A DNA stretch of 64,000 bases. Origin: Eledone cirrhosa. Lineage: Eukaryota. The position numbers were made by a program, and so were the translations under genes. The notes below the pieces were generated by a model that was not told the origin of the DNA, did no database searches, and saw only the letters and a program-made list of their open reading frames with translations. Position 1 is the stretch's first letter. The number at the start of each line of letters is the position of its first letter. Of this stretch, positions 17,530 to 50,100 are shown piece after piece. The stretch covers positions 330,584,001-330,648,000 of the forward strand of contig OZ024741.1 of NCBI GenBank assembly GCA_964016885.1. Direction: 5' to 3'.

Positions 17530-17533
<4 letters not shown>
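15442..17533 (+). mobile_element. RTE LINE family A, 5'-truncated and disrupted (copy 1)
   Basis: RT motifs FVDLEKAFDRVP, GVHQG, YADD, FRYLG; frameshift near 15640, stop at 16076; (ATG)n tail. Confidence 0.92.
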
Positions 17534-17569
<36 letters not shown>

Positions 17570-17570
17570 T

Positions 17571-19713
17571 AGCTTGGAAGTGTCACTATGAAAGGCTACT
17601 AAATGAGGAGAATAAATGGGAGAAAGACAGTCTCCCCCACATAGACCCAATAGAGGGACCAGCAGTGTTAGTCGAGGGTAGTATAATAAGTAAGGCAATC
17701 AAAGATATGAAGACAGGCAAGGCGGCTGGGCCTTCGGAAATAGTTGCCGAGATGCTGAAGGCATCTGGTACGGTGGGACACACCATGGTCACCCGGATAG
17801 TCAACCAAGTCATACAGAATGGGGTTGTTCCGAAGGACTGGCGTAGCAGCATTATCGTTAACTGTTATAAGGGTAAAGGAGATGCCCTAGATAGGAGTAA
17901 CTATAGAGGCATTAAATTAATCGACCAGGTCATGAAGGTCACGGAAAAAGTAATAGCGCAACTAATCAGAGAGCGAATTGATCTAGATGAAATGCAGTTC
18001 GGGTTTGTGTCAGGAAAAAGTACCACAGACGCTCTTTTCATTGTACGACAACTACAGGAGAAGTACCTAGCTAAAAGTAAACCCCTATACTTAGCTTTCG
18101 TCGACTTGGAGAAAGCTTTCGACAGAGTCCCCCGTTCCATTATCTGGTGGGCTCTTAGAAAACTAGGTGTTGACGAATGGCTTGTGAGAGCTATACAAGC
18201 CATGTATAAAGAAACAGTCAGCAAGGTTAGAATTAACAACGAATATAGTGAAGAGTTTAGCGTAAAAGTTGGCGTCCATCAGGGCTCTGTTCTCAGCCCC
18301 CTACTATTTATTATTGCCCTTCAGGCTATAACAGTGGAGTTCAAGACCGGCTGCCCATGGGAACTCCTATATGCAGATGATCTAACGCTCATAGCTGAAT
18401 CAATGGCCGAGCTAGAGAAGAAATTCCAAACATGGAAGCACGGCCTAGAATCAAAAGGCCTTAAAATTAACCTGGCTAAGACTAAAGTTCTAGTTTGTAA
18501 GAAAGAAAATAAGGCGGCGGTCCCCTCCGGGAAGTGGCCATGCTCAGTGTGTAGGAAAGGCGTAGGTAGAAACTCCATTTTGTGTCCCAAATGCAAAGTA
18601 TGGGTGCATAAAAGATGTAGTGGGATCACAGGTAAGCTAACTAAGAACATAGATTTTACATGTGGCCGGTGCTCTGGTGCAATAAGTAGCAGCAAGTGCC
18701 CACAAAATACTAGCTCTTTCAACTGCGCAGAGGGTTCTATAGAAATAGTGGACAGCTTCCGTTACCTGGGTGACAAAATCAGCAGTGGGGGAGGGTGCTC
18801 TGAAAGTACAGTAGCTAGAGTCAGAACTGGATGGAAAAAGTTCAGAGAGCTTATACCACTATTAGCCGCTAAAGGGTTCTCCCTAAAAATGAAAGGCAGG
18901 TTGTATGATGCCTGCATACGAACAGCAATGTTGCATGGCAGTGAGACCTGGGAATTGTGTGCAGAGGATATACGCAGACTGGAGAGAAACGAAGCTTGCA
19001 TGCTCCACTGGATGTGTAATAGTAATCTACGTGAACGGCAAAGCATAAACGAACTCAGGAAAAAATTAGAAATAAGAGGGATCAGATGTTGTTTACTTGA
19101 GAGAAGGCTACGTTGGTATGGTCACGTGATGCGCATGAAGGACGATAGCTGTATAACAAAGTGCAGGGCAATAAAGATAGACGGTAGCCACGGAATAGGC
19201 AGACCCAGAAAAACCTGGGACGAGCTGATAAATTCCGACCTCACACACTTACACCTCACCAAGACAATGTCACTGGACCGAGACCTTTGGCGGTACTCAG
19301 TAATAGAGAAGACCCGCCTTACCTAAATACAAAGTAAAACCTACTACAGTCAGTAGGCATCTCTAACAAAATACACCCCCGTCCCACCACCCCCACCCCA
19401 TCCACACCGCCCCTTTCAATGTAAAGTTATGTTGGTGCCACAACATCCAGGCCAAAACAAATGAGATCGTGTAGGTGTCACGTCAAAAAACACACAGTCC
19501 ACGCTGTAATGTGGCCGTGTAGGCAACACGGTAAAAACCTCCCAGCCCCACACTGTAAATGTGGTTGGTGTTAGGAAGGGCATCCAGCTGTAGAAAACCC
19601 GCCAGATAGTCCTATGTGAGCAAGATAATCACTCTTGCCTCAAGTGGGAAAACCCCCGTCCAAACCCATGCAAGCGTGGAACACGGACGTTAAACGTTGA
19701 TGATGATGATGAT
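17571..19713 (+). mobile_element. RTE LINE family A, 5'-truncated with open RT ORF (copy 2)
   Basis: ORF 17665-19326 with RT and internal PHD finger; 3' UTR and (ATG)n tail; (TA)n on both flanks. Confidence 0.93.
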
Positions 19714-19730
19714 GTATATATATATATATT

Positions 19731-19781
<51 letters not shown>

Positions 19782-19788
19782 GTATATG

Positions 19789-19819
<31 letters not shown>

Positions 19820-19840
19820 GTATATATATATATGTATATG

Positions 19841-19871
<31 letters not shown>

Positions 19872-20689
19872 GTATATCTATATGTATATATATATATATG
19901 TTCTTTTCTTGGTTCTTTTCTTTTGTGTACTTTATATCTGTTTTTCTTTGGTTTTGTTCCATGTGATGGAAATTATGACTGTGTACCAGATTGACTACTC
20001 CCTTGAATACTGTAGTTTTCCCTCCGTCCTAATGTATGGCACTATCGTTCAATATGTGGATAGTGTAACAGTGACATTGGAACCCCTCTCAGAACTTCTT
20101 ACTTAAACATCTCTCTCCATATTTTTTACTCACTTCAATCTATATGTTTTTTTACTCACCTCAATCCGGATTCTCACTTGAAAAATTTTTAATTTCTAAT
20201 TGTTAATTTTTTAATTGTTTAATTTATAATTTCTGATTTTTTTATTTAGGATTTTAATTTTTATTTCCAACTCTCACTCATAACTTCCAATGTAAAACCT
20301 AGAATTAAGTATATTTTCTCTTGGGAGTTGATGGTCAGTCGTACTGTCCATGCTTGGTGAGAGGTAGTATTGTGACCTGTAAAAACTAACACTCTCCCAT
20401 CCCCTCTGGCTTTCGGCTGACTGCCACAGATGGGACGGGTAGCAGTAAACTATGGTACAGGCCTAAATGGGTCATTGTTTGGCTGAGAGGGTGAACTGAC
20501 TAAGCGAATTTCGTTGAAATCGGCGTTAGTTAATGGTCAACTTCCTTCGGACATGCGCCTGCACAGACCGGTGGGGGTGAATTGGCACTCACAGGGGAAC
20601 GGAGGAAGAACCCCAAAGCACACACTTCGTCCATTCCCATGTCGATTCAACTTGGATCGCCTCGGAAACATAACCTTATTATGTAACAA

Positions 20690-20763
20690 GCTGTCTGATG
20701 ATGTCACGACACTCGCACACAGAACAGTGTGGCCAGTGTCGTCATTGAAATATATATCACAGC
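20690..20763 (+). ncRNA. Type I hammerhead ribozyme with long stem II, in a pLTR-like segment ending at (TA)n ~20895
   Basis: GCTGT-CTGATGA-..ACGACACT...AGTGTCGT..-GAAA-TATATA-TC-ACAGC. Confidence 0.82.
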
Positions 20764-20899
20764 ATTATTATTAAAGGACTTGAACATCTGAAACTACTTC
20801 GCTTTTACTTATTCGATATTTACTCCGTCACTCCTATGTGGAAAAAGTACGTTGAGTGCTTGAATTGAATTGCATCAATGTTTACTCTAAGTATATGTA

Positions 20900-20942
<43 letters not shown>

Positions 20943-22523
20943 GTGAAGAGTTTAGCGTAAAAGTTGGTGTCCATCAGGGCTCTGTTCTTAGCCCCCTACT
21001 ATTTATTATTGCCCTTCAGGCTATAACAGAGGAGTTCAAGACCGGCTGCCCATGGGAACTCCTATACGCAGATGATCTAACGCTCATAGCTGAATCAATG
21101 ACCGAACTAGAGAAGAAATTCCAAACGTGGAAGCACGGCCTAGAATCAAAAGGCCTTAAAATTAACCTGGCTAAGACTAAAGTTCTAGTTTGTAGGAAAG
21201 AAAATAAGGCGGCGGTCCCATCGGGGAAATGGCCATGCTCAGTGTGTAGGAAAGGCGTAGGTAGAAACTCCATTTTATGTCCCAAATGCAAAGTATGGGT
21301 GCATAAAAGATGTAGTGGGATCACAGGTAAGCTAACTAAGAACATAGATTTTACATGTGGCCGGTGCTCTGGTGCAATAAGTAGCAGCAAGTGCCCACAA
21401 AATACTAGCTCCTTCAACTGCGCAGAGGGTTCTATAGAAATAGTGGACAGCTTCCGTTATCTGGGTGACAAAATCAGCAGTGGGGGAGGGTGCTCTGAAA
21501 GTACAGTAGCTAGAGTCAGAACTGGATGGAAAAAGTTCAGAGAGCTTATACCACTATTAGCCGCTAGAGGGTTCTCCCTAAAAATGAAAGGCAGGTTATA
21601 CGATGCCTGCATACGAACAGCAGTGCTGCATGGCAGTGAGACCTGGGCATTGTGTGCAGAGGATATACGCAGACTAGAGAGGAACGAAGCTTGCATGCTC
21701 CGCTGGATGTGCAATAGTAATATACGTGAACGGCAAAGCATAAACGAACTAAGGAAAAAATTAGAAATAAGAGGGATCAGATGTTGTTTACTCGAGAGAA
21801 GGCTACGTTGGTACGGTCACGTGATGCGCATGAAAGACGACAGCTGTATAACAAAGTGCAGGGCAATAAAGATAGACGGTAGCCACGGAGTAGGCAGACC
21901 CAGAAAAACATGGGACGAGCTGATAAATTCCGACCTCACACGCTTACACCTCTCCAAGACAATGTCACTGGACCGAGACCTTTGGCGGTACTCAGTAATA
22001 GAGAAGACCCGCCTTACCTAAATACAAAGTAAAAACCTACTACAGTCAGTAGGCATCTCTATCAAAACACACCCCCGTCCCACCACCCTCCACCCCACCC
22101 ACACCGCCCCTTTCAATGTAAAGTTATGTTGGTCCCACAACATCCAGGCCGAAACAAATGAGATCGTGTAGGTGTCACGACAAAAAACACACAGTCCACG
22201 CTGTAAATGTGGCCGTGTAGGCAACACGGTAAAAACCTCCCAGCCCCACACTGTAAATGTGGTTGGTGTTAGGAAGGGCATCCAGCTGTAGAAAACCCGC
22301 CAGACAGTCCACGCTGTAATGTGGCCGTGTAGGCAACACGGTAAAAACCTCCCAGCCCCACACTGTAAATGTGGTTGGTGTTAGGAAGGGCATCCAACTG
22401 TAGAAAACCCGCCAGACAGTCCTATGCGAGCAAGACAACCACTCTTGCCTCAAGTGGGAAAACCCCCGTCCAAACCCATGCAAGCGTGGAACACGGACGC
22501 TAAACCTGATGATGATGATGATG
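20943..22523 (+). mobile_element. RTE LINE family A, 5'-truncated (copy 3)
   Basis: EEFSVKVGVHQG...YADD...EKTRLT*; ~112-bp duplication in the 3' UTR; (ATG)n tail. Confidence 0.92.
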
Positions 22524-22542
22524 TATATATATATGTATATAT

Positions 22543-22884
22543 GGAGACACATGGCTTAGTGGTTAGAGCATTGGGCTTGAAATCGAAAGGTTGTGAGTTC
22601 AATTTTCAGACCGGGTGATGTGTTGTTTGCTTGAGCAAGACACTTTATTTCACATTGCTCCAGTTTACTCAGCTGTAGAAATGAGATGATAGGGACTGGG
22701 GTCTATATCATTCCACTGCAAAATGGTCGTGGAGGTGCCACAGCAAAAAAGCACCCAGCACTCACTGTAAATGAGGTTGGTGTTAGGAAGGGCATCCAGC
22801 TGTAGAAATCAAGCCAGAATCAGTTCCCGTCCCACCCTTGCAAGCAGGGAAAAGCGGACGTAAAATGATGATGATGATGATGAT
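22543..22884 (+). mobile_element. tRNA-derived SINE with CORE-like body and RTE-derived 3' tail
   Basis: A box TGGCTTAGTGG, B-box-like GAGTTCAATT, CTTGAGCAAGACACTT (CORE-like); tail identical to the RTE family B 3' end; (ATG)n. Confidence 0.85.
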
Positions 22885-22891
22885 ATATATG

Positions 22892-22940
<49 letters not shown>

Positions 22941-23064
22941 ATACATATATATGTATATATGTATATACATATATATGTATATATGTATATATGTATATAC
23001 ATATATATGTATATATGTATATACATATATATGTATATATGTATATACATATATACATATATAT

Positions 23065-23845
23065 GAATTTGTCAACGCTTATTAATGCTTAGACGTGCTA
23101 GCCCCCCTGCGAAATGTAATGTAAATGCCATTTTTTTTTCTTGTCTCTCCAGCCTCTCGGTCCATTCATTCATATATCCATATCATCGCCCAGAATCCAA
23201 TCTTTTGCTCTCTCTCAATGCTATTCTATAATTCTGTCTGGTTGTTCTAAATAATCTTCTTGTATTTTAAAATCCCATTATTCGCTTATTATTACTGTTA
23301 TATGCTTGTTCAATTATGCCCAAAATTCGAAGGTTTTATTTAAACCCTCTCGTAAAATGCCCCATTTGTTTTTCTAAAATAACAACCTCGTTTGTTTAAT
23401 TTTGGCCGAAAAATTCTAGGATTTATAAAATGGCCTCCTTGTCCCTCTTAATCTTTACCCCCCCCCCCCCCTATATCGTATTATGCGCCTGCTAGTTCAC
23501 CCTTTCAATCACTCCCTTCTCTCACCAAATATAAATAAACCTGTTATGAGGTACGAATCTCAGAATTTGTCAACGCTTATTAATGGTCAGACCTGCTAGT
23601 CCCCCTGCGAAATGTAATGTCAATGCCATTTTTTTCTTGTCTCTCCAGCCTCTCGGTCCATTCATTCATATATCCGTATCATCGCCCAGAATCCAATCTT
23701 TTGCTCTCTTTCAATGCTATTCTATAATTCTGTCTGGTTGTTCTAAATAATCTTCTTGTATTTTAAAATCCCATTATTCACTTATTATTACTGTATATGC
23801 TTGACCAATTATGCCCCAAATTCGAAGATTTTATTTAAACCCTCT
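23065..23845. repeat. ~285-bp direct repeat pair, period ~498 bp
   Basis: GAATTTGTCAACGCTTATTAATG...TTTAAACCCTCT at 23065 and 23563. Confidence 0.9.
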
Positions 23846-23899
23846 TGCTAACTACCCCATACCCCTCCCACCCGCCCCCACACTCCACCATTATTATTA

Positions 23900-26800
23900 G
23901 GACCAATCATAAGTCAGCGGCCTATGCTATCACTTCTCCTGGTTGCTTTTCGATATGATGGATGGACTAAGGAATTCTGGAGAGTCTGAAAAATCTGGAC
24001 ACTCAGTGACAATGCCAAAGACAAAGACACCTCATGCTGCCGGACGAAAAGGCAAGGACTCCCCTTCTTTGTTTCGGCCGCAGATGGCCAACATAACCCC
24101 AACCCCATCCCCCTCACCCCTCTCTGCGCCCGACCGTTCCCACCCACCAAATGCAATCCAAAACTTCAGAGTTGGTACCAATCCAAAACAACGAGGTTGT
24201 AGAAATGCTTGAACGTAAGGAGGTTGATGTTTGCTGTATTCAAAAGACCAGGTGGAGCGATGGGTCTGCTAGATTCATTGTGGGTAAAGAACGCTGCTAT
24301 AAGCTTTTCTGGGTGGGAAATGACAATGGGCTGGGTGGGGTAGGAATCATGTTAGCAGAAAAATGGGCAGATAAGATAATAGATGTAAATAGAGTGAACG
24401 ACAGAATAATTAAAATAAGACTTGTCCTAAATAGAACTACTGTGACAGTAATATCTGCGTATGCACCCCAATCCGGACTGCCTGGCGCTATAAAAGACAG
24501 ATTCTATGAGACATTGATGCTCACTATCTCCCAAATAACCAACAGTGACTACATAATTATTGCTGGCGACCTAAATGGTCACGTTGGACAACATTGTGAC
24601 GGCTATGACGGAATCCATGGAGGCTATGGGTTTGGTACTAGAAATGAGGAAGGCTCCAGAATCCTGGAATTCTGTGATGCAAAGAACCCAACTATCTGTA
24701 ACACTAACTTAAAAAAATGAGACAATCACTTGATCACCTATAGATCAGGGGAACACGCCAGTCAGATAGATTATATCCTGACCAGAAGATGTGATAGAGT
24801 GTCTGTTGTAAACACTAAATCCCTTCCCCATGAAGAATGCACCTCCCAACATAGACTCATAGTCAGCGACCTCATAGTCAGGACAAGACGTACTCGGCAA
24901 CAGAGGAGGACTATCCTCAGGAGAAAAATATGGAAGCTAAAGGACCCCACAGCCAGTAATAAATTTAAAAGCATATTCCTTGATGCTTTCAACAGTAAGA
25001 AAGAGCAATTAGAGTCGTACAATATAGAGGAACAGTGGGAATTCCTGAAAGCTAACCTGCTGAAGGCGGCAGATGAAGTCTGTGGCTGGAGCAGGCCTAT
25101 AGGCAGGAGGAGAGTAACGTGGTGGTGGAACAGTAAGGTGGAGGAGTCAATTAAGGCCAAAAAGCAGGCTTGGAAAGTATTGCGGGATGGGGGAAGTAGA
25201 GAAGACTATCAAGTGGCCAGGAGAAAAGCTAGGAGACAAGTGTACTTCGCAAGAAGGGAAGCAGAGGAAAGAAAGTTCAAGCATGTTCTACAATGCGAGG
25301 ACCAAAAACGTGAGGTGTTCAGGATTGCTAGGCAATGTGTCAAGGAAAACCGTGATATTGTCGGGGAGAAGTGTGTCCTTAATGATGATGGTGTACTTGC
25401 CATCACTGACGCTGATAAGAAGGAAGCTTGGAAGTATCACTACGAAAGGCTACTAAATGAGGAGAATAAATGGGAGAAAGACAGTATCCCCCCACATCGA
25501 TCCAATAGAGGGACCAGCAGTGCTAGTTGAAGGTAGTATAATAAGTAAGGCAATCAAAGATATGAAGACGGGTAAGGCGGCTGGGCCTTCGGAAATAGTT
25601 GCTGAAATGCTGAAAGCATCTGGAACGGTGGGACACACTATGGTCACCCGGATAGTAAACCAAGTCATACAGAATGGGGCCGTTATGAAGGACTGGCGTA
25701 GCAGCATCATCATTAACTGCTACAAGGGTAAAGGAGATTCCCTAGATAGGGGTAACTATAGAGGCATTAAATTAATCGACCAGGTCATGAAGGTCACAGA
25801 AAAAGTAATAGCGCAACTAATCAGAGAACAAATTGATCTAGATGAAATGCAGTTCGGGTTTGTGTCAGGTAAAAGTACCACAGACGCTCTTTTCATTGTA
25901 CAACAACTACAGGAGAAGTACCTAGCTAAAAGTAAACCCCTATACTTAGCTTTTGTTGACTTGGAGAAAGCCTTTGACAGAGTCCCCCGCTCCATTATCT
26001 GGTGGGCTCTTAGAAAACTAGGTGTTGATGAATGGCTTGTGAGAGCTATACAAGCCATGTATAAAGAAATAGTCAGAAAGGTTAGAATTAACAACGAATA
26101 TAGTGAAGAGTTTAGCGTAAAAGTTGGTGTACATCAGGGCTCCGTTCTTAGCCCCCTACTATTTATTATTGCCCTTCAGGCTATAACAGAGGAGTTCAAG
26201 ACCGGCTGCCCATGGGAACTCCTATATGCAGATGATCTAACACTAATAGCTGAATCAATGGCTGAACTAGAGAAGAAATTCCAAACATGGAAGCATGGCC
26301 TAGAATCAAAAGGCCTTAAAGTTAACTTGTCTAAGACTAAAGTTGTAGTTTGTAGGAAGGAAAATAGGGCACCGGTCCCATCTTGGAAATGGCCATGCTC
26401 AGTGTGTAGGAAAGGAGTAGGCAGAAACTCCATTTTATGTCCCAAATGCAAAGTATGGGTGCATAAAAGATGTAGTGGGATCACAGGTAAGCTAACTAAG
26501 AATATAGATTTTATATGTGGCCGGTGCTCTGGTGCAATAAGTAGCAGCAAGTGCCCACAAAATACTAGCTCCTTCAACTGCGCAGAGGGTTCTATAGAAA
26601 TAGTGGACAGCTTCCGTTATCTGGGTGACAAAATCAGCAGTGGGGGAGGGTGCTCTGAAAGTACAGTAGCTAGAGTCAGAACTGGATGGAAAAAGTTCAG
26701 AGAGCTTATACCACTATTAGCCGCTAAAGGGTTCTCTCTAAAAATGAAAGGCAGGCTCTATGATGCCTGCATACGAACAGCAATGTTACATGGCAGTGAG

Positions 26801-27700
26801 ACCTGGGCATTGTGTGCAGAGGATATACGCAGACTGGAGAGGAACGAAGCTTGCATGCTCCGCTGGATGTGTAATAGTAATATACGTGAACGGCAAAGCA
26901 TAAACGAACTAAGGGAGAAATTAGGAATAAGAGGGATCAGATGTTGTTTACTTGAGAGAAGACTACGTTGGTATGGTCACGTGATGCGCATGAAAGACGA
27001 CAGCTGTATAAAAAAGTGAAGGGCGATAAAAATAGACGGTAGCCACGAAGTAGGCAGACCCAGAAAAACCTGGGACGACTTGATAAATTCCGACCTCACA
27101 CACTTACATTTCTCCAAGACAATGTGACTGGACCGAGATCTTTGGCGCTACACAGTAATACAGAAGACCCGCCTTGACTAAGTACAAAGCGAAACCTACA
27201 GTCAGTAGGCACCTCTAACAAAAATACACCCCTGTCCCACTACCCCCCCCCCCTCCACCCCACCCCCTTACATGTGAAGTTATGTTGGTACCACAACATC
27301 CGAAACAAATGAGGGCGTGTAGGTGTCACGACAAAAAAACACACAGTCCACACTGTAATGTGGCTGTCTAGGTAACACGGTAAAAACCTCCCAGTCCACA
27401 CTGTAAATGTGGTTGGTGTTAGGAAGGACACCCAGCCGTAGAAAACCTGCCAGACGTGTAGGTGTCACGACAAAAAAACACACAGTCCACGCTGTAATGT
27501 GGCCGTTTAGGTAACACAGTAAAAACCTCCCAGTCCACACTGTAAACGTGGTTGGTGTTAAGAAGGGCATCCAGCCGTAGAAAACCAGCCAGACAGTCTT
27601 ATACGAGCAGGACAACCAATCTTGCCTCAAGTGGTAAAACTCCCGTCCAAACCCATGCAAGCGTGGAAGATGGACATTAAACAATGATGATGATGATGAT
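23900..27700 (+). mobile_element. Near-full-length RTE LINE family A (APE + RT), disrupted (copy 4)
   Basis: APE motifs VDVCCIQ, SAYAPQ, GDLNGHVG, SQIDY, SQHR; RT ORF 25457-27019; several stops/frameshifts. 5' boundary approximate. Confidence 0.9.
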
Positions 27701-30725: not shown

Positions 30726-32170
<1,445 letters not shown>

Positions 32171-32287
32171 GGCCGCTAACAGTGAGAGAGTGAGTGTGTG
32201 TCTCCACTTTTATAGAGGATACGGTGGTGTGCGCCAGGCCAAGGAAGAGTTATTACAGCTTGATTTCACTAAAGTTTATCTAGCGAA

Positions 32288-33229
32288 ATGGACTGCATGC
32301 AGGAAAAAGGTGAAATCAGGAGTCAACGAAACTGGTCAAAGATGGAACTAGCGGTTTTGATCAAGGGGTGGACCATGGCTGATGGGTCTCCACCAAGCAA
32401 AAAGATGGCGGAGAACCTGAAGAGCCATGGGTTTCTGAGGACCCTGGCACAGATAGAGAGAAAGAGAAAAGAAATTGAGAAGGCGTATGTCCTCATAGCG
32501 CCACATATGGCGATGCTAAGCCGTGTCCTCAGGGAGGAGAAAACCGAAGGGAGGGATGAGGAGAAGGAGAGGGAAAAGGAAGAGGAAAAAGAAAAGGAGG
32601 AGAGCACAAGCACGGACCTGAAAGAAAATGATATACCCTCCACCACAAGCAGGGAGGGCAGGCCGGGCAACCAACAAGCTAAGGGCAAAGGTGAAAAGCA
32701 AAATCACCTTCCGAAGGAGAACCAAGCGTAGAGGGACCAGTGGACAACTGTTCAAAGGAAGAACAGAAAGCACCGAGATAATGGGAGCAAAAAACCCCAA
32801 GTAATGTGCAAGTTTTTCAAGAACGGGACATGCTGGCATGGAGAGACAGGGATGGGATGCAGATTCGCCCACCCTAGGTCTCAAACGAACTATGCCCATC
32901 ATACTCGCGCAACATGCCCCAGCCAAAGCCGAAATAAGCCGCTCCAGAAGTATGCTGATGTCGCGCGTGCTGCACCAACAAGGAGAAGGCACGCACATGC
33001 CGACGAGATACAGATGGCAGCAGCAGATCAGAAAAATTTTTTAGTGATGGCAGAGAAGATTGTGGGACAGCTGACCTGGCTGCATCGTCTCCAGAGCCAG
33101 GGTCATCCACACCAGCACTCGAGACCACCGCAGTTAAGGGACCCAGAGTGGCCGCCGCTGACACCAAACCAGGTGTCATACCGACAGCCATTACTGGCAC
33201 CCCAAAAGTCACACCAGTGCTGCTGCTGA
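32288..33229 (+). pseudogene. LINE ORF1 (Myb/SANT-like N-terminus + CCCH finger) with one in-frame TAG at 32729
   Basis: ORFs 32288-32731 and 32804-33229 are in the same frame. NWSKMELAVLIKGW...GFLRTLAQIERKRKEIEKAY; CKFFKNGTCWHGETGMGCRFAH. Confidence 0.7.
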
Positions 33230-36156
33230 ATGTCAGGGGCCTGGTGAAACTCAGCAACATGAGTAAAATTTCCTACCTGGGAGACTTAGCCATAAGCAAT
33301 CAAGCACTATGCATGGCACTAACCGAAACGCACCTGACAAGCAGTATAGCAGATGCAGAAATACATATACCGAAATATACTGTATTTCGGTCGGACAGGA
33401 AGGAGAGAACTCATGGTGGGGTTGCTCTGTATATCCATGAAGATGTCACACCAATTGTACTGTTGACACATTCAAACTCAGTCTGTGACACACTGATAAT
33501 ACATATGAAGCAACTACAGACAGTAATATGTGTCACATATCGGCCGCCCGATGCCCCCAGTCATGAGGGTAAATTTGAGGATAGCCTAAGTAGGATAGAA
33601 GAGGTCCTTGACAAACTGGACCAGGGTCTCAACATCCTACTGCTGGGAGACTTCAACCTACCAAAGGTCAAATGGCCTGAGGGCCACCTCCTCCCTGGAA
33701 TGACGTCAATAGAACAGAGACAGACGGAATCCCTGCTGGCCCTCACACACAGGCTGTTCATGGAGCAAGCAATACTCCTCCCAACAAGAGGCGAAAATGT
33801 CTTGGACCTCTGTTTTACAAACAACGAAGTGCTCATCCACAATGTAAAGGTGACACCAACAATTCTCTCGGATCGTAACTTAGTAGAGCTAATGATATGT
33901 GGTCCAAGAGACCCAACAGAGACAAAACCACCAAGAAGCTCCGGGACACTATCCAACCTTAACTTCTACAAGGCTAACTGGAAAAAGATTAAGAGTGAAA
34001 TCCGGAAGCAAACATGGAGTGAAAACACCGCCACACAAGACACTAACACACAATTTCAACACTTCATGACAACGATACACACCATATGCAAAAAGTGTGT
34101 CCCGGAGAAAGAGGCAAACAGACACAAAAATCTTATTCCCAGAGATAGGAAAATCCTTATGAGACGTAGAACTAAACTCTCAAACCAGTTGAATAGTCAA
34201 CAAAACAAAAACAAGAAGGAATCCTATTTGAAACGTGCACTACTTGACACCGAGATTGCACTCAAACTTTCACATGAGAATGAGAGGGCAAAGAAAGAGA
34301 ACAGGGCCATAGAAAACATTAAAACAAACCCTAAGGCCTTCTTTAAATTTGCAAAAGAAACTGCCTCAGTACACTGCAAGATTGGGCCACTCTTCCACAC
34401 GGACGGTTCATTAACCGAAAATCCCCAAGAGATATGTGAAATACTGAACGAACAGTACAAAAGTGTGTTCACATGTCCACTGAGGCACATGCAAATAACG
34501 AAGCCAGAGGAGTTCTTTGATGCCACAACACTACATCAAGAAATGGCAACCATCAACCACATAGACATAACGGAGGAGGATGTGGTGTACGCCATTGATG
34601 AAATTAGAACAGACTCGGCTGCTGGACCTGATGGATTCCCAGCAGTTCTCCTAAAAATATGTAAGCGGGCTTTAGCAACTCCACTGAAGATGCTCTTCAG
34701 AAGCTCCTTGGCTAGCGGTGTACTACCCAGGGAGCTGAAAGAAGGCACAATATGCCCTATCCATAAAGGAGGTAGTAGAGCGGAGGCCAAGAACTATAGG
34801 CCAGTCTCCCTGACGTCGCATATCAGTAAGGTCATGGAGCGAGTCGTCAGAAAGAAACTAATCACTTTCCTCGAAGAAAATGACCGCCTGACTAGCACGC
34901 AACATGGCTTCCGCCCAGGAAGAAGCTGCCTTACACAGCTGCTACATCACTACGACTGGGTACTGAGACAACTACTAGACAGCTCACATGTGGACGTGAT
35001 ATATCTTGACTTTGCGAAGGCCTTTGACAAGGTCGACCACGGAATGATATGTCACAAACTACACGGACTCGGCATAACTGGAAAAGTAGGTGAGTGGCTG
35101 CATGGCTTCCTAAGGGACAGAAGCCAGGCAGTCGCAGCAAATGGGGCCCTCTCGAGGGAAACACCGATAACAAGTGGGGTGCCCCAGGGGACAGTCCTGG
35201 GACCACTACTGTTTTTGGTGGCTCTCTCGGACATGCCCTCTGTGGTGCATGCAACAACATCCCTCACTAGCTATGCTGATGACACTAAGGTAGCACAGGC
35301 AATCAAAAACCCGGCTGACGCTGCCCTTTTACAGCAGGATCTGGATGCCATATACAGATGGGCGGAAGAAAACAACATGCAGTTTAATGCTGGCAAATTC
35401 CAAGCCCTACAATACAAACCTGCAAACACAAATATAGTGGAACACAGCTACACAGGACCAGGAGGGAGCGATATCCCCGTGTCAAAATCGATACGAGACC
35501 TGGGCAGAGACATGAGCGATGATGCATCTTTTTCTTCACACATCATGAAGGTGCCGACAATATGTAGACGATTCGCTGGCTGGATCTTGAGGACTTTCCT
35601 TACAAGAGATCGAGACACCATGTTGACACTGTGGGGGACTTTTGTCCTAAGCCGCCTGGACTACTGCTCCCAGCTGTGGTCACCCCATAGTGTCAAACTA
35701 ACCACGGAGCTTGAGGCAATCCAGATGAGGGAGACAAGCTACTGGGAGAGGCTAAAGGAACTGAACCTCTACTCCTTGGAGCGAAGATGGGAGAGATACG
35801 CAGTGATCTACATGTGGAAAATCCTGGAGGGACTAGCACCAAACTTTGGCATTGGGAGCTGGACTAACCGTCAAACAGGACGTCACTGTATGGTGCCAAA
35901 GGTCCCGTCTTCCACATCTAGAATAAGGAGCAGGTATTGCAATAGCCTGGGATTCAAGGGCCCTCAACTCTTCAACAGGCTGCCGAGGCATCTGAGAGAC
36001 TTCCATGACGTGGAGGTGGATGTCTTTAAGAAACATCTCGACACCTTGTTATCCAGGATCCCGGATGAGCCCACAGCAAGACACGAGGGAAACCTAACGG
36101 CAGCAGCAACAAACTCCCTCCTACACCAGTGGCCAACCTATACAGGCTGGAGATAA
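33037..36156 (+). CDS. LINE ORF2 APE + RT, no AUG before endonuclease motif I
   Basis: [46 protein letters not shown] replaces SDH and there is a short deletion near 35725, so probably inactive. Start is placed at the slippery site (inference). Confidence 0.85.
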
Positions 36157-36229
36157 AATGTGTAGCAACAAGAGCGGTGCCCCAGCATGGCCTCAGCCGG
36201 ATGGCTGAATCAGGTAAAAGAGTAAAAGA

Positions 36230-36280
36230 GTATATATATGTATATATACATATGTATATATATATATGTATATATATATG

Positions 36281-36311
<31 letters not shown>

Positions 36312-36630
36312 GTATATATATATGTATATATATATATATGTGTATGTATATATATATGTATATATATATATATGTGTATGTATATATATATGTATATATA
36401 TATATGTGTATGTATATATATATATATATGTGTATGTATATATATATATATGTGTATGTATATATATATATATATATGTGTATGTATATATATATATATA
36501 TGTGTATATATATATGTATATATATATGTATATATATGTGTATATATGTGTATATATATGTGTATATATGTGTATATATGTGTATATATATGTGTATATA
36601 TGTATATATATATGTATATATATGTGTATA
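36230..36630. repeat. (TA)/(TG) compound microsatellite
   Basis: Visible array. Confidence 0.97.
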
Positions 36631-37900
36631 TCATCATCCTCATCATCATCATCGTTTAACGTCCGTGTTCCACGCTTGCATGGGTTTGGATGGGGGTTTT
36701 CCCACTTGAGGCAAGAGTGGTTATCTTGCTCGCATAGGACTATCTGGCGGGTTTTCTACAGCTGGATGCCCTTCCTAACACCAACCACATTTACAGTGTG
36801 GGACTGGAGGTTTTTACCGTGTTGCCTACACGGCCACATTACAGCGTGAACTGTGTTTTTTTTACGTGACACCTACACGATCTCATTTGTTTCGGCCTGG
36901 ATGTTGTGGCACCAACATAACTTTACATTGAAAGGGGCGGTGTGGATGGGGTGGGGGTGGTGGGACGGGGGTGTATTTTGTTAGAGATGCCTACTGACTG
37001 TAGTAGGTTTTACTTTGTATTTAGGTAAGGCGGGTCTTCTCTATTACTGAGTACCGCCAAAGGTCTCGGTCCAGTGACATTGTCTTGGTGAGGTGTAAGT
37101 GTGTGAAGTCGGAATTTATCAGCTCGTCCCAGGTTTTTCTGGGTCTGCCTATTCCGTGGCTACCGTCTATCTTTATTGCCCTGCACTTTGTTATACAGCT
37201 ATCGTCCTTCATGCGCATCACGTGACCATACCAACGTAGCCTTCTCTCGAGTAAACAACATCTGATCCCTCTTATTTCTAATTTTTTCCTTAGTTCGTTT
37301 ATGCTTTGCCGTTCACGTATATTACTATTACACATCCAGCGGAGCATGCAAGCTTCGTTTCTCTCTAGTCTGCGTATATCCTCTGCACACAATGCCCAGG
37401 TCTCACTGCGATGCAACATTGCTGTTCGTATGCAGGCATCGTACAACCTGCCTTTCATTTTTAGGGAGAACCCTTTAGCGGCTAATAGCGGTATAAGCTC
37501 TCTGAACTTTTTCCATCCAGTTCTGACTCTAGCTACTGTACTTTCAGAGCACCCTCCCCCACTGCTGATTTTGTCACCCAGGTAACGGAAGCTGTCCACT
37601 ATTTCTATAGAACCCTCTGCACAGTTGAAAGAGCTAGTATTTTGTGGGCACTTGCTGCTACTTATTGCACCAGAGCACCGGCCACATGTAAAATCTATGT
37701 TCTTAGTTAGCTTACCTGTGATCCCACTACATCTTTTATGCACCCATACTTTGCATTTGGGACACAAAATGGAGTTTCTACCTACGCCTTTCCTACACAC
37801 TGAGCATGGCCACTTCCCGGAAGGGACCGCCGCCTTATTTTCTTTCTTACAACCTAGAACTTTAGTCTTAGCCAGGTTAATTTTAAGGCCTTTTGATTCT
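36631..37900 (-). mobile_element. RTE LINE family A, 5'-truncated (copy 5)
   Basis: ORF 37021-37956 ESKGLKINLAKTK...EKTRLT; reverse-complement 3' UTR and (CAT)n. Confidence 0.92.
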
Positions 37901-38593
37901 TTATATTGATATATGTGTATATATATATATATCAAATAGTAGAGTTGAAAACTCACAATAATGCCATATGATCCAAGGAGTTCCAGGAAGGGAGACCGAA
38001 CATTTTATAAATCATAGTAATGAGTGAAAGACACATAATAAACTATATCAGACAATAGGGGATAAAATACCACCCTGGTTAAGCATAAGGTATTTTATCC
38101 CCTATTATTTGATATAATTTATGTGTCTTTCTCTCATTACTATGATTATATATATAAGCAAGTATTGCACCAAGAAAACTATAAACGTTGGTGTGAAGGT
38201 GATTATGAATTTATTTTCCTTAACATATGTTTCTGTGTCTATTATAATTGTCTACATATTCTGACTACAATATATATTGTTCAATCATACGCAATACTTA
38301 ATTATTTATCACACTTTATCAGAAAGCCTATAATAGTTTAGGGATTCATGTTTATTTTTAAAATAAAATTTAGTAAGAAAAAAAATGTAGTGGGTAATAA
38401 AAGGAAAGAAAGAATAGTGAAATATAGAAAAAAAAAGTGAGAAAGAAAGAAAAAGAACAGGAAGGAGAAGGGATGGCAAGAGCTCTGGTGTGTTTAGGGA
38501 TTGTAATGTCAAGTTTACTGTAGGTTCACCAAAGTGAGCACCCAATGCATAGTCTCCAGTATGTATTTTGGTGTTGTGCTAAGCAGAGTGTAA

Positions 38594-41500
38594 TCATCAT
38601 CATCATCATCATCATCATTTTACGTCCGCTTTTCCCTGCTTGCAAGGGTGGGACGGGTCTTATTCAGCACAGTATCTCTCCACTCGTCACGGTCCCTCGT
38701 CATCTCCACCGTGAGCTTCAATGATCTGAGGTCTGTTCTCACCACCTCCGCCCATGTTTTTCGTGGTGTACCTCTACCACGTCTTCCTTCAACTGGCAAT
38801 TCCTGGCACTTCTTCACCCATCGAACATCCTCCATGCGCATCACATGTCCATACCACCTCAGTCTCCTCTCCCGTACACTACATTCTATCCCTCTCAGAC
38901 ACAGTTTCTCTCTCAACACATTTATGCTGGGTCGTTCACGCACATTTATACTGCACATCCAATGGAGTATGCTTGCCTCATTTCTCTCCAGTCGTCGCAT
39001 ATCCTCTGCAGTTGCTGCCCATGTCTCACTACCATGCAGCATCGCGCTCCTCACACAGGCATCATACAACCGGCCTTTCGTACGCAGGGAGAAACCCTTC
39101 TTCGTCAACAGAGGAAGCAGCTCCCTAAACTTCTTCCAACCCGTCCTTATTCTAGATACTATGGCCTCGGAACACCCTCCTCCCATGCTAATCTGATCTC
39201 CTAGGTACCGGAAGCTATCCACCACTTCTATAGCACCCCCTTGCATTTGAAAAATGTGTCTATCAGTGCGACTTCTACTGTCTAATTTCCCTGTACATCT
39301 ACTGCATATATACTTCTCCCTACCTGTTAGTTTGCCTGCTATCCCGCTACATCTCTTGTGTACCCAGGATCTGCATTGTGTGCATTTTATAGAATTTATG
39401 CCAGTTCCTTTTCTGCATATCGAACATTGCCATTTCCCTGACGGAATCAGAGTTTTGTCCTCTTTTCTACTCATCAACACTTTTGTCTTAGCTAGATTCA
39501 CTCTCAGTCCTCTTGCTTCCAACTGCTGTTTCCATAGCCGGAATTTATTCTCTAGCTCCTCTACTGATTCTGCCATAAGAGCCAGATCGTCAGCATAGAG
39601 AAGTTCCCATGGACAGCCAGTCTTAAACTCCTCTGTTATGGCTTGGAGGACTATAATGAACAAGAGCGGGCTGAGGACCGAACCCTGATGTACTCCTACT
39701 TGTATCTGGAATTCCTCACTAAACTCCATTCCTACCCTGACTTTACTGAGAGTACCTCTGTACAAAGTTTGCACTGTCCTCACAAGCCATTCCTCAACAC
39801 CTAGCTTCCTTAGAAGATCGGGGTACCCTATCAAAGGCCTTCTCTAGGTCAACAAAGGCTAAGTATAGTGGCTTATTCTTCTCTAAGAACCTCTCTTGCA
39901 ATTGTCTCACCAAGAAGAGGGCATCTGTTGTACTCTTCCCAGGCACAAAACCAAACTGCATCTCATCTAGTTTGACCCTTTCTCTAATTAGTTGTGCTAA
40001 AATCCTTTCTGCCACTTTCATAACCTGATCTATCAGTTTTATACCCGTATAATTGCTCCTCTCCAAAGCATCCCTTTTACCTTTGTAGCAATTTATGAGA
40101 ATACTGCTGCACCAGTCTTTGGGTATGACACCACCATATATAGCCTGATTGATGATGCGTGCAACCAGTTTAGTGCCTACGTCCCCTGATGCCTTCAGCA
40201 TCTCAGCAACTATTCCCGATGGTCCGGCAGCCTTACCATTTTTCATTTCCCTAATCGCCTCTTGGACCCTATATTTGTCAATCTCAATAGCTGGTCCCTC
40301 TGTCGGATCCACCAAGGGTAATTTCTCTCTCTCCCATTCGTTCTCCACATTCATCAGTCTCTCATAATGACATTTCCAGGCCTCCTTTTTCTGATCATTC
40401 GTGACACTAAGTACACCGGCATCATCCCGGACACATTTATCTCCAACAACATCCTGATTTGCATTGACACACTGCTTTGCAATGTGGAACACTGCATGCC
40501 TCTGATCTTCCCGTCGCAGAACATTGGCAAACCTCCTACTCTCTGCCTCCCTGCGTGCTAAGTACACCTGACGTCTAGCTTCTCTCTTAGTGGCTGTATA
40601 TTCTTCCCTACTCCCACCCTTATTCCAAGCCTTCCATGCTAGTCTTTTGTCTCTAATAGCCTTATCTACTGTGCTGTTCCACCACCAGGTCACTCTCTGT
40701 CTGGTTGGAGCTCTGCTCTAGCGACACGTTTCATCAGTAGCCTGCAGCAAGTTGTCACGTAAGAAATTCCAGTTATTATCTATGTCATACGTCTCTAAAT
40801 CGTCTTCTTTTTCGTCATATACATCTTGAAAGGCTTTCCTAAATTTGTATTTTAGTGAAAGGTCTTTTAGCTTCCAGACCTTTCTTCTCCACACCTTCCT
40901 ATATGTCTCATTCCATCTCTTGCTTACTGAGATATCACTAACAACTAACCTATGCTGTGGGGTACATTCTTCCCCAGGGTATGCCTTGGTATTAGACACT
41001 ATCTGCCTGTCCCGCTGCCTAACTAGCAGGAAGTCAATCTGGCTTATGTGCTCACCAGATTTGTAGGTTATTAGGTGATTGGCAGGTTTCTGGAAGTTTG
41101 TGTTGCAAATAGTCAATGTACTTGCATCACAAAATTCAAGAAGTCTCACTCCTTCTTCATTTCTTGAACCGTAACCGTGCCCACCATGTACCCCAATGTA
41201 ACCATCCTGGAGCTGTCCAACATGACCATTGAAGTCTCCTGCTAGCATAACGATGTCTCCGTCCTCTGTCATTGCGGTTGTTTGCAAAAGTTGCTCATAA
41301 AAGCAGTCTTTCTCATCTTTGCCTAGGCCTGCTTGGGGAGCATAGGCCGAGATGATTGTCAATAGTCTCCTACCTACAACTAATCTAAGCTTAATTATTC
41401 GATTACTAACTCGAACTACCTCTATTGTCTTATTGATCCATTTCTCAGCCAGGAAAATGCCTACTCCCCCTAGCCCATCATCCTTACCTACCCAGAATAG

Positions 41501-41800
41501 CTTATAGCTAAGACGCTTGCCTACGACTAGTCTCGCAGAGGCACCTCTCCATCTCACCTCTTGCACGCAGCACACATCCACCTGCCTTCTCTCCAGCATC
41601 TCCGCTATTTCAGCAGATCTACCTCTGAGAGTGCCAACATTAAGTGTTGCAACTCTGAGATGCGACGTCTTCATATTTTGTTGTTGTTCCTATCTGTTGC
41701 TGTGCTGATAAGCGTTTTGGCATTGATACACTGGTTGGATGCCCTTCCTAACACCAGCGCCACTTTACAGCATGGACTGGGTGCTTTTATTTGTGCCACC
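38594..41800 (-). mobile_element. Near-full-length RTE LINE family B (APE + RT + PHD), one stop and one frameshift
   Basis: MKTSHLRVATLNVGT..., ORFs 40718-41674, 39794-40693, 38620-39834; the ORF ends inside the 3' tail, followed by (ATG)n. Confidence 0.92.
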
Positions 41801-48065: not shown

Positions 48066-50100
48066 TTGTTATGCTTTGGGAGGGTCATGTTGCCAATAAG
48101 AAACACACGCACCAGTTGCTTTCACTCCAATTTATTATAAATAAAATTTATAAATTTAAGAATTTATAAATTTCCGGTTGGTTGGTTGGTTCCATAACCG
48201 GACGGTTGTTCATATATTGTCAAAGTTCTTTCGTCACACATTCTGTGACCTCTTCAGTGACTGGAGATTCTTTTCTTTGTTTTTGTGCCTCTCCTTTGTT
48301 CTGTCCTACGCCATCTTGTTTTTGTGTGTGTTGTGTGCTTAGTTTGTGCATGTGTTACATCCGGGTGTCTGTGTGTGTTTATATTTGTTTATTTATTTGT
48401 TTATTTACATGTTACTGGCTGGTTGTTTGTTCTATGTGTGTGTGTGTGTTTTCATTTTGTCCTTAATTGTAAGTTGTGATGTTGCTATTCCATTCATGTT
48501 TTCTATTTAATTTTGGTTGGAGTTCATTTATGTTTATTGCCTCTGTGATTTGTCTAAACATTGCGTTTTTTCTGTGTGTAGATTCTATTTTTATTTCTAT
48601 GTTCTCTAATTTGCCCTTATGTTCTATTTTAGCATGTTGGTGGAGTATTGATGATTCTTGTTTATCTTGAAGTTCTCGCCAGTGTTCATTTAACCGTTCT
48701 CCTATACTACGAACTGTCTCACCTATATACACTATATTCTTATCTTTACAGTGTCCTTCAGTACATCTTATGCTATATACTACATTTCTAGTTTTACAGT
48801 TAATATGGGGGCTTAGTTTACAGATTATGCATTTCTTATCTATACAGAGAGGTCTTTGAAAAGGGTATGTATTGCTAATAAGTGTTTTTATGGAAGGACC
48901 TGGTCTTTCTACTATCTTAATATTAAGTTTATGTTTATCTAGGGTCCTTCTAAATTTGTAAGCTAATTCACCTCTAGGGGTTGTATTGATGAACATTACA
49001 CTCTGGTATTTATTGCTATCATACCATGAGTTTATTCTATTAACCTTATTCCTAGTTCTTTCTATTCTATTCCAAAATTTGCTCCTATACAAGGGGCAGG
49101 TCCCATTTGTATCATTATTTACCATTTTTTCCCATTTAGTTCTGGCTCCTTTATATACTCTGATTTTATCTCTCTGATTGTAACCAGAGAACTGCATACG
49201 GTGGATGAAGTGTTGTATGTGTCTCTCTAGTTCTTTGGGGTTTCTCATCACCCGTACCAAATCCGCAATCAGTATGTTGATTTTGGTGTGATCCGAAACA
49301 GCTGAGTTTCAGTGGATCAGATATAATGGGTTTGGCATAATGGGAATGGAGGATTTGTTTTTTGTTATTAAATGGTTTCTAACCAAAGCTCTGTGTCTAG
49401 TACAGGTAATCGATGGTTGGGGTGTTTGCTTGGGTACTCTATAGTAACTCTAATACTCTGGTGGATGGAGTTAACTATTTGCTGGATGCTTTCCATTGTG
49501 TTTTTCTCTAATTCCTGACTGTTCTCTAGTGGGGGTGATTTTACTATGATGTTTATATCATCAACGTAGCGGGAGTACATTATCAGGGTTAAGAGGTTGC
49601 TGTCTTCTAATTGTTCTTTAAGTTTAAGTTTAAGTTTATTGTCCCACCATACCATGAATAGGTTAGCTATGTCACCTGCAATGCTAACACCAATGGCTGC
49701 TCCCTCCTCTTGGGCATATGTTTTTCCATTAAATTTGAACATATGTTCCTTAAGGGTTAATTTTATACTGGCCCCCACCGCATGTGCAATCATTTTCTTT
49801 AGTTCATCGTGGTTTTCGGGGGTCCGTATGGCTCTGGTCCACCCATTCCATCTTTCTGTGTGGGTTTTCTTGGCCATTGAGGTAATGGTAGGTGGTCTGC
49901 CTCTTGTTGGTCTTGTAGGGCACAGGTTGCTAAGGTCATACGTATCTAGATAATCATTACTATAGGTAAGTATCTAGATAATCATTACTATAGGTAAGTA
50001 TCTAGATAATCATTACTATAGGTAAGTATCTAGATAATCATTACTATAGGTAAGTATCTAGATAATCATTACTATAGGTAAGTTTAAAATTTCCTGCTTC
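48066..50100 (-). mobile_element. 5'-truncated Penelope-like element (RT, GIY-YIG, pLTR with hammerhead at 48219-48261)
   Basis: QEEGAAIG, YSRYVDD, LPVLD; NVVYSIRC...VYIGETVRSIGERLNEH; reverse complement GTCA-CTGAAGA-GGTCACA..TGTGAC-GAAA-GAAC-TT-TGAC. Confidence 0.9.
49943..50082. repeat. Perfect 28-bp tandem repeat x5
   Basis: TATCTAGATAATCATTACTATAGGTAAG. Confidence 0.97.

Follow-up and report, generated by a model that had tools for sequence, protein, structure and literature searches.

A slippery heptamer conserved at the ORF1/ORF2 junction of an animal LINE clade points to reverse transcriptase expression by −1 ribosomal frameshifting

Introduction

The expression of LINE ORF2 is a long-standing question, for which the textbook answer is reinitiation yielding a free ORF2 protein. 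Bombyx SART1, a bicistronic LINE whose ORF2 combines AP endonuclease (APE) with a reverse transcriptase (RT), uses a stop–start overlap and makes a separate ORF2 protein rather than a fusion. Mammalian L1 is likewise bicistronic with an APE–RT ORF2, for which an unusual, AUG-independent initiation after ORF1, giving a separate protein, is favored (PMC5009743). Recoding has been put forward for two other groups. The APE-type LINEs TRE5-A and TRE3-A of Dictyostelium are said to "require a -1 frameshift" for ORF2; these are amoebal, tRNA-gene-targeting elements, and the passage concerned gives no slippery site or test (PMC5911963). For Paramecium LINEs, +1 frameshifting, reinitiation or readthrough was proposed, and no −1 shift on a slippery heptamer (PMC5405496).

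A −1 programmed ribosomal frameshifting (PRF) site is defined by an X_XXY_YYZ heptamer in zero-frame phase (PMC3542737), and U_UUU_UUA, G_GAU_UUU, U_UUA_AAC and G_GGA_AAC are listed as shift sites (PMC5009743). In HIV-1 gag-pol, U_UUU_UUA lies where an enzyme ORF overlaps, in the −1 frame, an ORF that encodes a zinc-finger RNA-binding protein (PMC5009743, PMC3542737). Here we describe a LINE with a similar junction, found in a 64,000-nucleotide stretch of the Eledone cirrhosa genome (the window) that also contains a related element upstream, referred to as the first element. The heptamers of its clade match published shift sites (PMC5009743, PMC3542737, PMC11050907), and the variants G_GAU_UUU and U_UUA_AAC are published viral heptamers (PMC5009743). 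Unlike HIV-1, these are non-LTR elements with AP endonuclease and RT, in which no protease or integrase was seen; their overlap spans 32–214 codons in all but one family, and the two window families lack a stimulator at 5–9 nt.

CR1-group LINEs share the APE–RT ORF2 and a short tandem-repeat tail with the window element (PMC4120745, PMC13343379, PMC10294476), and the word "frameshift" does not occur in the main texts of these three papers. The published ORF1 types are esterase, PHD, RRM/CCHC and Tnp22, and the ORF1-type table of Metcalfe & Casane has no CCCH type (PMC4120745). CR1-Zenon has no ORF1 and ends in poly-A (PMC13343379). Nothing relevant to the question was found in PMC1925062 and PMC1947958; PMC7175516 is also part of the background. 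We found no description of such an animal LINE clade in the open full-text literature; Repbase and Dfam entries and paper supplements may already note the overlap.

Results and Discussion

The window element and its family

Inspection of the window element (Table 1) revealed an APE-type LINE: its ORF2 carries AP endonuclease and RT, and its family is high-copy and 5'-truncated. On the strength of CR1-like RT motifs, both window elements are putative members of the CR1 group; the tree built here is endonuclease-only and unlabelled. They may correspond to CR1 subgroup 2, described as "unclassified, PHD only" (type V) (PMC4120745). Identity with CR1-Zenon was excluded because the window element has an ORF1 and a short tandem-repeat tail.

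Table 1. Features of the two LINEs in the window (positions are those of the whole window)
Feature	Position	Strand	Remarks
First element, T_TTT_TTA	11582..11588	+	in ORF1 phase; ORF1 ends at 11693; ORF2 frame 11564–14701
Host-derived spliced leader of the window copy	32171..32283	+	92-nt exon 32171–32262 and 21-nt exon 32263–32283
LINE element, whole	~32284–36230	+	
ORF1	32288..33229	+	CCCH-like finger, x-Phe-Leu and helix, Q/P-rich tail
CCCH-like zinc finger of ORF1	32807..32878	+	weak; the zf-CCCH match (E = 0.023) misses the Pfam cut-off
ORF2 frame (−1 relative to ORF1)	32959..36156	+	Pfam endonuclease and RT domains; no ATG before 33259
A_AAT_TTT overlapping the heptamer	33034..33040	+	present here, not conserved by the family
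Slippery heptamer T_TTT_TTA	33037..33043	+	ORF1 phase, conserved; likely −1 shift site
Dual-coded stretch (tail of ORF1, linker in the ORF2 frame)	33037..33229	+	both frames open; the third has 5 stops
Stem proposed initially	33072..33105	+	arms 33072–33081 and 33095–33105; starts 28 nt after the heptamer; unsupported as a stimulator
GTG in the ORF2 frame	33148..33150	+	overlaps an ORF1 Trp codon; 37 codons past the heptamer
Endonuclease of ORF2	~33226–33873	+	Pfam
Reverse transcriptase of ORF2	~34759–35409	+	Pfam
3' end	36214..36230	+	8-nt unit twice, no poly-A, then (TA)n

The family is young and abundant, with 968 candidates in the 3.0 Gb host genome, the top 40 at 99% identity. Intact copies encode an ORF1 of about 320 aa. 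In the window copy it is interrupted by a TAG at 32729–32731, which is present in 0 of 29 other copies. Relatives of the element carry tandem CCCH fingers. The coordinates of the initial annotation all proved correct (the TGA at 32956–32958, both heptamers, the GTG and the stem arms). As it had read them, T_TTT_TTA and A_AAT_TTT are both in ORF1 phase, and ORF2 is the −1 frame, with its first ATG (33259–33261) downstream of LLLNVRG, the endonuclease motif I.

The −1 phase was found in all 29 other fetched copies with the same 25-codon open lead-in, so the overlap is not a copy-specific indel. T_TTT_TTA was kept in 28 of the 29, and mostly also in older copies (~81–94% identity), whose counts include duplicate loci and serve qualitatively only. 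The overlapping A_AAT_TTT had been taken as part of the site and did not hold up: its codon reads CAT or ATT in 11 of 30 loci, and base 33034 is variable in older copies that mostly retain T_TTT_TTA. The tandem was rejected as a functional site for lack of conservation across the family. P0136 and P0121, used as queries for diverged sister families, brought back the same family only.

Survey of ORF1/ORF2 junctions in the clade

Relatives were collected with an endonuclease-alignment scan of metagenome contigs, which was blind to the junction and from which the best 80 of 168 were kept. A Pfam search contributed 30 further loci from the element's own genome. A quick tree placed both window elements in a clade of 59 rows (SH-aLRT 95), from which 56 loci were grouped into 44 families at 75% identity. 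The family counts exclude the long-branch rows L104/L105, whose ORF1 differs, as well as L110, loci without motif I, and L116, for which there was no upstream DNA.

An in-phase heptamer was read directly in 36 of the 44 families: T_TTT_TTA in 30, G_GAT_TTT in three, and G_TTT_TTA, G_TTT_TTC and T_TTA_AAC in one each. Two further families turned positive once other copies were read. For the L139 family, the heptamer was present in 12 of 13 additional copies, as predicted beforehand; for L137/L144, it was seen in L152 and L160. The junction was absent from the fetched DNA in five families (L058, L065, L078, L093, L101). L066 has no heptamer and is the one genuine exception. Thus, in 38 of the 39 families whose junction could be read, a slippery heptamer stands in phase close to where the ORF2-open stretch begins. 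Heptamer phase across families had been set beforehand as a refuting test, and it is not random, the heptamer lying in phase at the homologous place. The single member L103 has the non-canonical T_TTT_TTG.

An outgroup family carries a G_GGA_AAC junction. The named protein relatives come from Oratosquilla (crustacean) and Mnemiopsis (ctenophore) and are known at the protein level alone. No relative was found among viral contigs, and the ESM Atlas returned only unnamed CCCH clusters, under 0.9.

Selection on the heptamer nucleotides

The Phe-Leu encoded at the heptamer could be a mere protein motif that opens the ORF1 helix, with the T run reflecting codon bias. The peptide motif and the helix are indeed conserved enough for a codon-blind motif search on ORF1 peptides, in which 31 of 44 families scored at least 5. 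Of the two window elements, the search passed over the second and hit the first one codon away from its heptamer. A slippery heptamer stood at the sites chosen in this way in 29 of the 31 families, where each family's synonymous codon use would predict 3.5; under a strict criterion, the count was 26 and the expectation 2.3. The P values of this test overstate independence and are too strong, because the families share ancestry. All 29 heptamer sites lie within the open −1 stretch.

Codon use at the site deviates sharply from the background of the elements and from neighboring Leu codons. The Phe codon is TTT in 27 of 27 cases (background 348 TTT to 373 TTC) and is preceded by T in all 27. The Leu codon is TTA in 24 of 27, and in 3 of 70 among the leucines that follow in that helix. 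As a control, the Phe of the catalytic GDFN motif mixes 23 TTC with 9 TTT, which indicates that synonymous sites are free to drift. The peptide, in turn, varies (Leu-Asn, Phe-Gln, Phe-Phe) where the shift heptamer stays. Families that have lost T_TTT_TTA carry the substitutes G_GAT_TTT, T_TTA_AAC or G_TTT_TTA, and where G_GAT_TTT replaces the site, the Leu codon relaxes to CTG/CTC or turns into Gln. These results largely refute the protein-motif explanation, which we consider barely tenable. As far as codon choice can tell, the controls show that selection acts on the heptamer nucleotides and not on the peptide alone, and that a clade-wide, nucleotide-level signal at the ORF1/ORF2 junction is real.

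Reading frames around the heptamer

The −1 frame closes a median of five codons upstream of the heptamer, where it has 253 stops per 3032 codons. No −1 stops were found in 3368 dual-coded codons, versus 102 expected from synonymous resampling of ORF1 and 234 in the third frame; the zero is partly by construction, as the choice of sites favored open stretches. No ATG precedes motif I in 29 of 36 families and a linker ATG occurs in the other 7, near-cognate starts being possible throughout. The base after the heptamer is G in 29 of 36 families, and AG stands there in 27 of 36.

An AUG-independent start of ORF2, by reinitiation past the ORF1 stop or from a near-cognate codon, the GTG at 33148 for example, would make the heptamer incidental. 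This is the best rival explanation, because in 35 of 36 families the ORF1 stop lies between −71 and +7 nt of motif I, and stops are scarce in the ORF1 frame too, almost up to that point (12 versus 55 expected). Reinitiation could exploit this openness of ORF1, for which frameshifting has no need. A functional Q/P-rich tail would also account for the open ORF1 frame. An AUG-independent start is the favored route for mammalian LINE ORF2 in the Atkins review (PMC5009743). Most copies of the window family retain the GTG. Its overlap with an ORF1 Trp codon speaks against its use as a start, as does the GTA found in its place in two old copies. Reinitiation further leaves unexplained why the −1 frame is already open from the heptamer, 41–220 codons before motif I of the endonuclease, and why the heptamer is fixed at the nucleotide level and swapped for other shift sites. 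We therefore regard an AUG-independent start as unlikely, though the most credible of the rivals to frameshifting.

Splicing and other changes in the RNA

The sequence TTTTTTAG is acceptor-like and, with AG directly at the site in the 27 families noted above, could serve as a 3' splice or trans-splice acceptor, through which the ORF2 frame would be joined to an exon farther upstream. The family does use an acceptor in its 5' UTR, as revealed by the leader of the window copy. The leader exons (first 113 bases) are 100% identical to two host segments lying 21 kb apart on G000:C2. Each host segment is followed by GTAAG, and a pyrimidine-rich AG precedes the second. The host leader is joined precisely at the 5'-UTR acceptor of the family, where other copies have a pyrimidine tract and CAG. 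Judging by this joint, the window copy is derived from spliced RNA; the source copy of the spliced chimera was absent from the 240 kb after exon 2.

Genomic copies are informative on splicing because LINE copies record their RNA. The RNA of the window copy passed the spliceosome and its ORF1/ORF2 junction is intact, which provides a built-in positive control against splicing at the heptamer. A joint at the AG was seen in 0 of 29 other copies, picked solely by sequence 3' of the AG. Among the matches listed from three contig sets of unknown kind, a weak source, there was no joint at 33044–33045 either. The AG is missing in 9 of 36 families, the substitutes at the site are shift heptamers and not pyrimidine tracts, and the sequence upstream is purine-rich in the window element. 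With neither an invariant AG nor spliced products at the heptamer, use of the site as an acceptor is very unlikely.

Some molluscs show abundant A-to-I editing. The frame could in principle be altered at the RNA level, either through editing that generates an AUG or through polymerase slippage on the T run, a T6 run being present at the site. An inserted base was found at the site in 0 of 29 genomic copies, which are cDNA of the RNA, on the assumption that the RNA making ORF2 is copied no less often than others. Slippage would need no fixed phase, and G_GAT_TTT and T_TTA_AAC fit tRNA re-pairing and not a homopolymer run. We give hardly any credence to a frame change in the RNA.

Search for an RNA stimulator

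The stem at 33072–33105 had been noted initially, and folding does not bear out a role as a stimulator. Its stability did not exceed that of dinucleotide shuffles (z = +0.4 to −0.3), and no compensatory changes were found in it among older copies. For both window families, the best helix at a 4–10 nt spacer was no better than in shuffles (p = 0.59 and 0.27). No H-type pseudoknot downstream of the heptamer was significant against shuffles, and Rfam gave no match of note. Of the canonical −1 PRF cassette, the window families have the heptamer in phase and a −1 ORF without an ATG before motif I; a stem or pseudoknot at 5–9 nt was found in neither family, so that the cassette is incomplete here.

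Across the clade, the first 45 nt past the site fold, on average, into more structure than shuffled sequence does, with a mean z of −0.86 (se 0.24) as against 0 to −0.39 at other offsets. A helix at a 4–10 nt spacer reached p ≤ 0.1 in 13 of 36 families, mostly of one subclade, and in one subclade a stem is predicted 6–8 nt past the heptamer. A 20-sequence subclade yielded no single covarying structure; two registers, each ~52–54% paired, did not stand out clearly from slid controls. For an RT, a low basal rate of shifting may suffice.

Relation of the two window elements

All 20 loci read for the first element, the one in the window among them, have T_TTT_TTA, and the first ORF2-frame ATG lies 141 codons downstream of the heptamer. 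The endonucleases of the two window elements are 34% identical, and a quick endonuclease-only tree assigned them to different subclades within one clade. The initial annotation had called their ORF1s otherwise unalignable by eye. BLAST agrees, giving no alignment (the best match, E = 0.036, falls on the zinc finger); the layout, however, is common to both elements and to their relatives, with CCCH-like finger(s), x-Phe-Leu, an amphipathic-looking helix and a Q/P-rich tail. CCCH-like fingers are thus the ORF1 type here, with a weak PHD in one relative. The second element had also been taken as independent support for frameshifting. This view has to be given up, since the site is common to both by descent. 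Given different subclades of one clade and the low endonuclease identity, the heptamer in both elements is, by sequence comparison, the long-term retention of one ancestral site.

Proposed mechanism and its significance

The results for 38 of 39 families, the synonymous constraint and the substitution of one heptamer by another support the clade-wide frameshift mechanism that was proposed initially. ORF2 is very probably made by programmed −1 ribosomal frameshifting at the clade-wide heptamer, as an ORF1–endonuclease–RT fusion comparable to retroviral Gag-Pol. In the window element, the Phe- and Leu-tRNAs on UUU UUA would slip one base back, and a minority of ribosomes would enter the −1 frame at 33043. 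The shifted ribosomes would then read a 61-codon linker rich in Ser, Thr and Ala, followed by the endonuclease and RT. The remaining ribosomes would complete ORF1 through the helix and the Q/P-rich tail. In the fusion, the CCCH finger(s) would be retained, and the helix and tail of ORF1 lost.

In two database proteins, P0069 and P0126, CCCH fingers and the endonuclease share one reading frame. These proteins hint that such fusions are tolerated, although they may be damaged copies. A word search, itself a weak test, found no long fused ORF1–ORF2 proteins.

On balance, we also lean towards a broader reading of these comparisons, in which an ancient animal LINE clade with ctenophore and crustacean relatives relies on −1 frameshifting to make a Gag-Pol-like RT fusion, a local RNA stimulator being absent from many of its families. 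A second lineage would do likewise with G_GGA_AAC, and frameshifting would be a common, overlooked route to ORF2. If the clade-wide shift site works in this retroviral manner, many animal LINEs would make an ORF1–RT fusion at a fixed ratio, equipped with its own RNA-binding fingers. The proposal offers a sharp test in a single heptamer and a single junction peptide. Studies of frameshifting itself could draw on the dozens of natural cassettes in the clade, which differ in heptamer and in whether a stem lies nearby. Gene callers place the start inside the endonuclease for 148 of 262 related proteins, a start-less look that such ORF2s would have because they would be entered by frameshifting.

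Spliced Host Leader and ORF Junctions

The second LINE element of the window was retrocopied from a chimeric RNA that had undergone splicing. In this copy, two host exons are joined to the acceptor in the 5′ UTR of the element (32171–32283), and the host segments from which they derive lie 21 kb apart on the same contig of the Eledone cirrhosa genome (G000:C2). The 240 kb beyond the second host exon did not contain the source copy of the chimera. Other copies of the family carry a 5′ UTR of ca. 900 nt, which ends in a long pyrimidine tract and a CAG located four bases 5′ of the ORF1 ATG. Splicing at this acceptor may thus allow the family to acquire promoters of the host.

Features located in the window and in fetched loci (L)
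Feature	Location
Host exon, 92 nt	L223:1501–1592
Host exon, 21 nt	L255:9747–9767
Several broken copies of other retroelements	window 1426–3048; 15525–27019; 37021–41689; 48463–49973
Trinucleotide-like repeat array, 5 kb (GTT/GTG/GCT units)	window 58700–64000

In the 36 clade families with a directly observed in-phase heptamer, the ORF1 frame remained open from the heptamer nearly up to the endonuclease, and its stops were depleted between the heptamer and motif I (12 vs. 55 expected). The resulting ORF1 tail was Q/P-rich and 32–214 codons long, with one exception, and the ORF2 linker it overlaps was rich in S/T/P/A. This tail could serve a function as a low-complexity domain. The first element contains an additional in-phase heptamer, A_AAA_AAC (window 11618–11624), 12 codons 3′ of T_TTT_TTA.

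An outgroup family of the same genome displayed an in-phase G_GGA_AAC immediately followed by the ORF1 stop TAA, and no ATG upstream of motif I, in all four copies covering the junction (L141, L148, L155, L159). In the metagenomic locus L129, G_GGA_AAC lies one codon ahead of the stop. These outgroup sequences possibly represent a second frameshifting lineage. The long-branch family L104/L105, whose ORF1 is unlike the others, has a −1 overlap with no ATG, and both A_AAA_AAC and G_GGA_AAA are in phase. In the database proteins P0069 and P0126, the endonuclease is in frame with CCCH fingers; they are possible natural single-ORF clade members.

Genomic Surroundings

(TA)n microsatellites flank both window elements (regions 10700–14790 and 32000–36630) and two full-length copies (L004 and L017), which suggests that insertion favors TA repeats, or just that the genome is rich in TA. 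The broken retroelements filling the window are RTE-like and Penelope-like, according to their motifs. The AT skew is extreme in the trinucleotide-like array.
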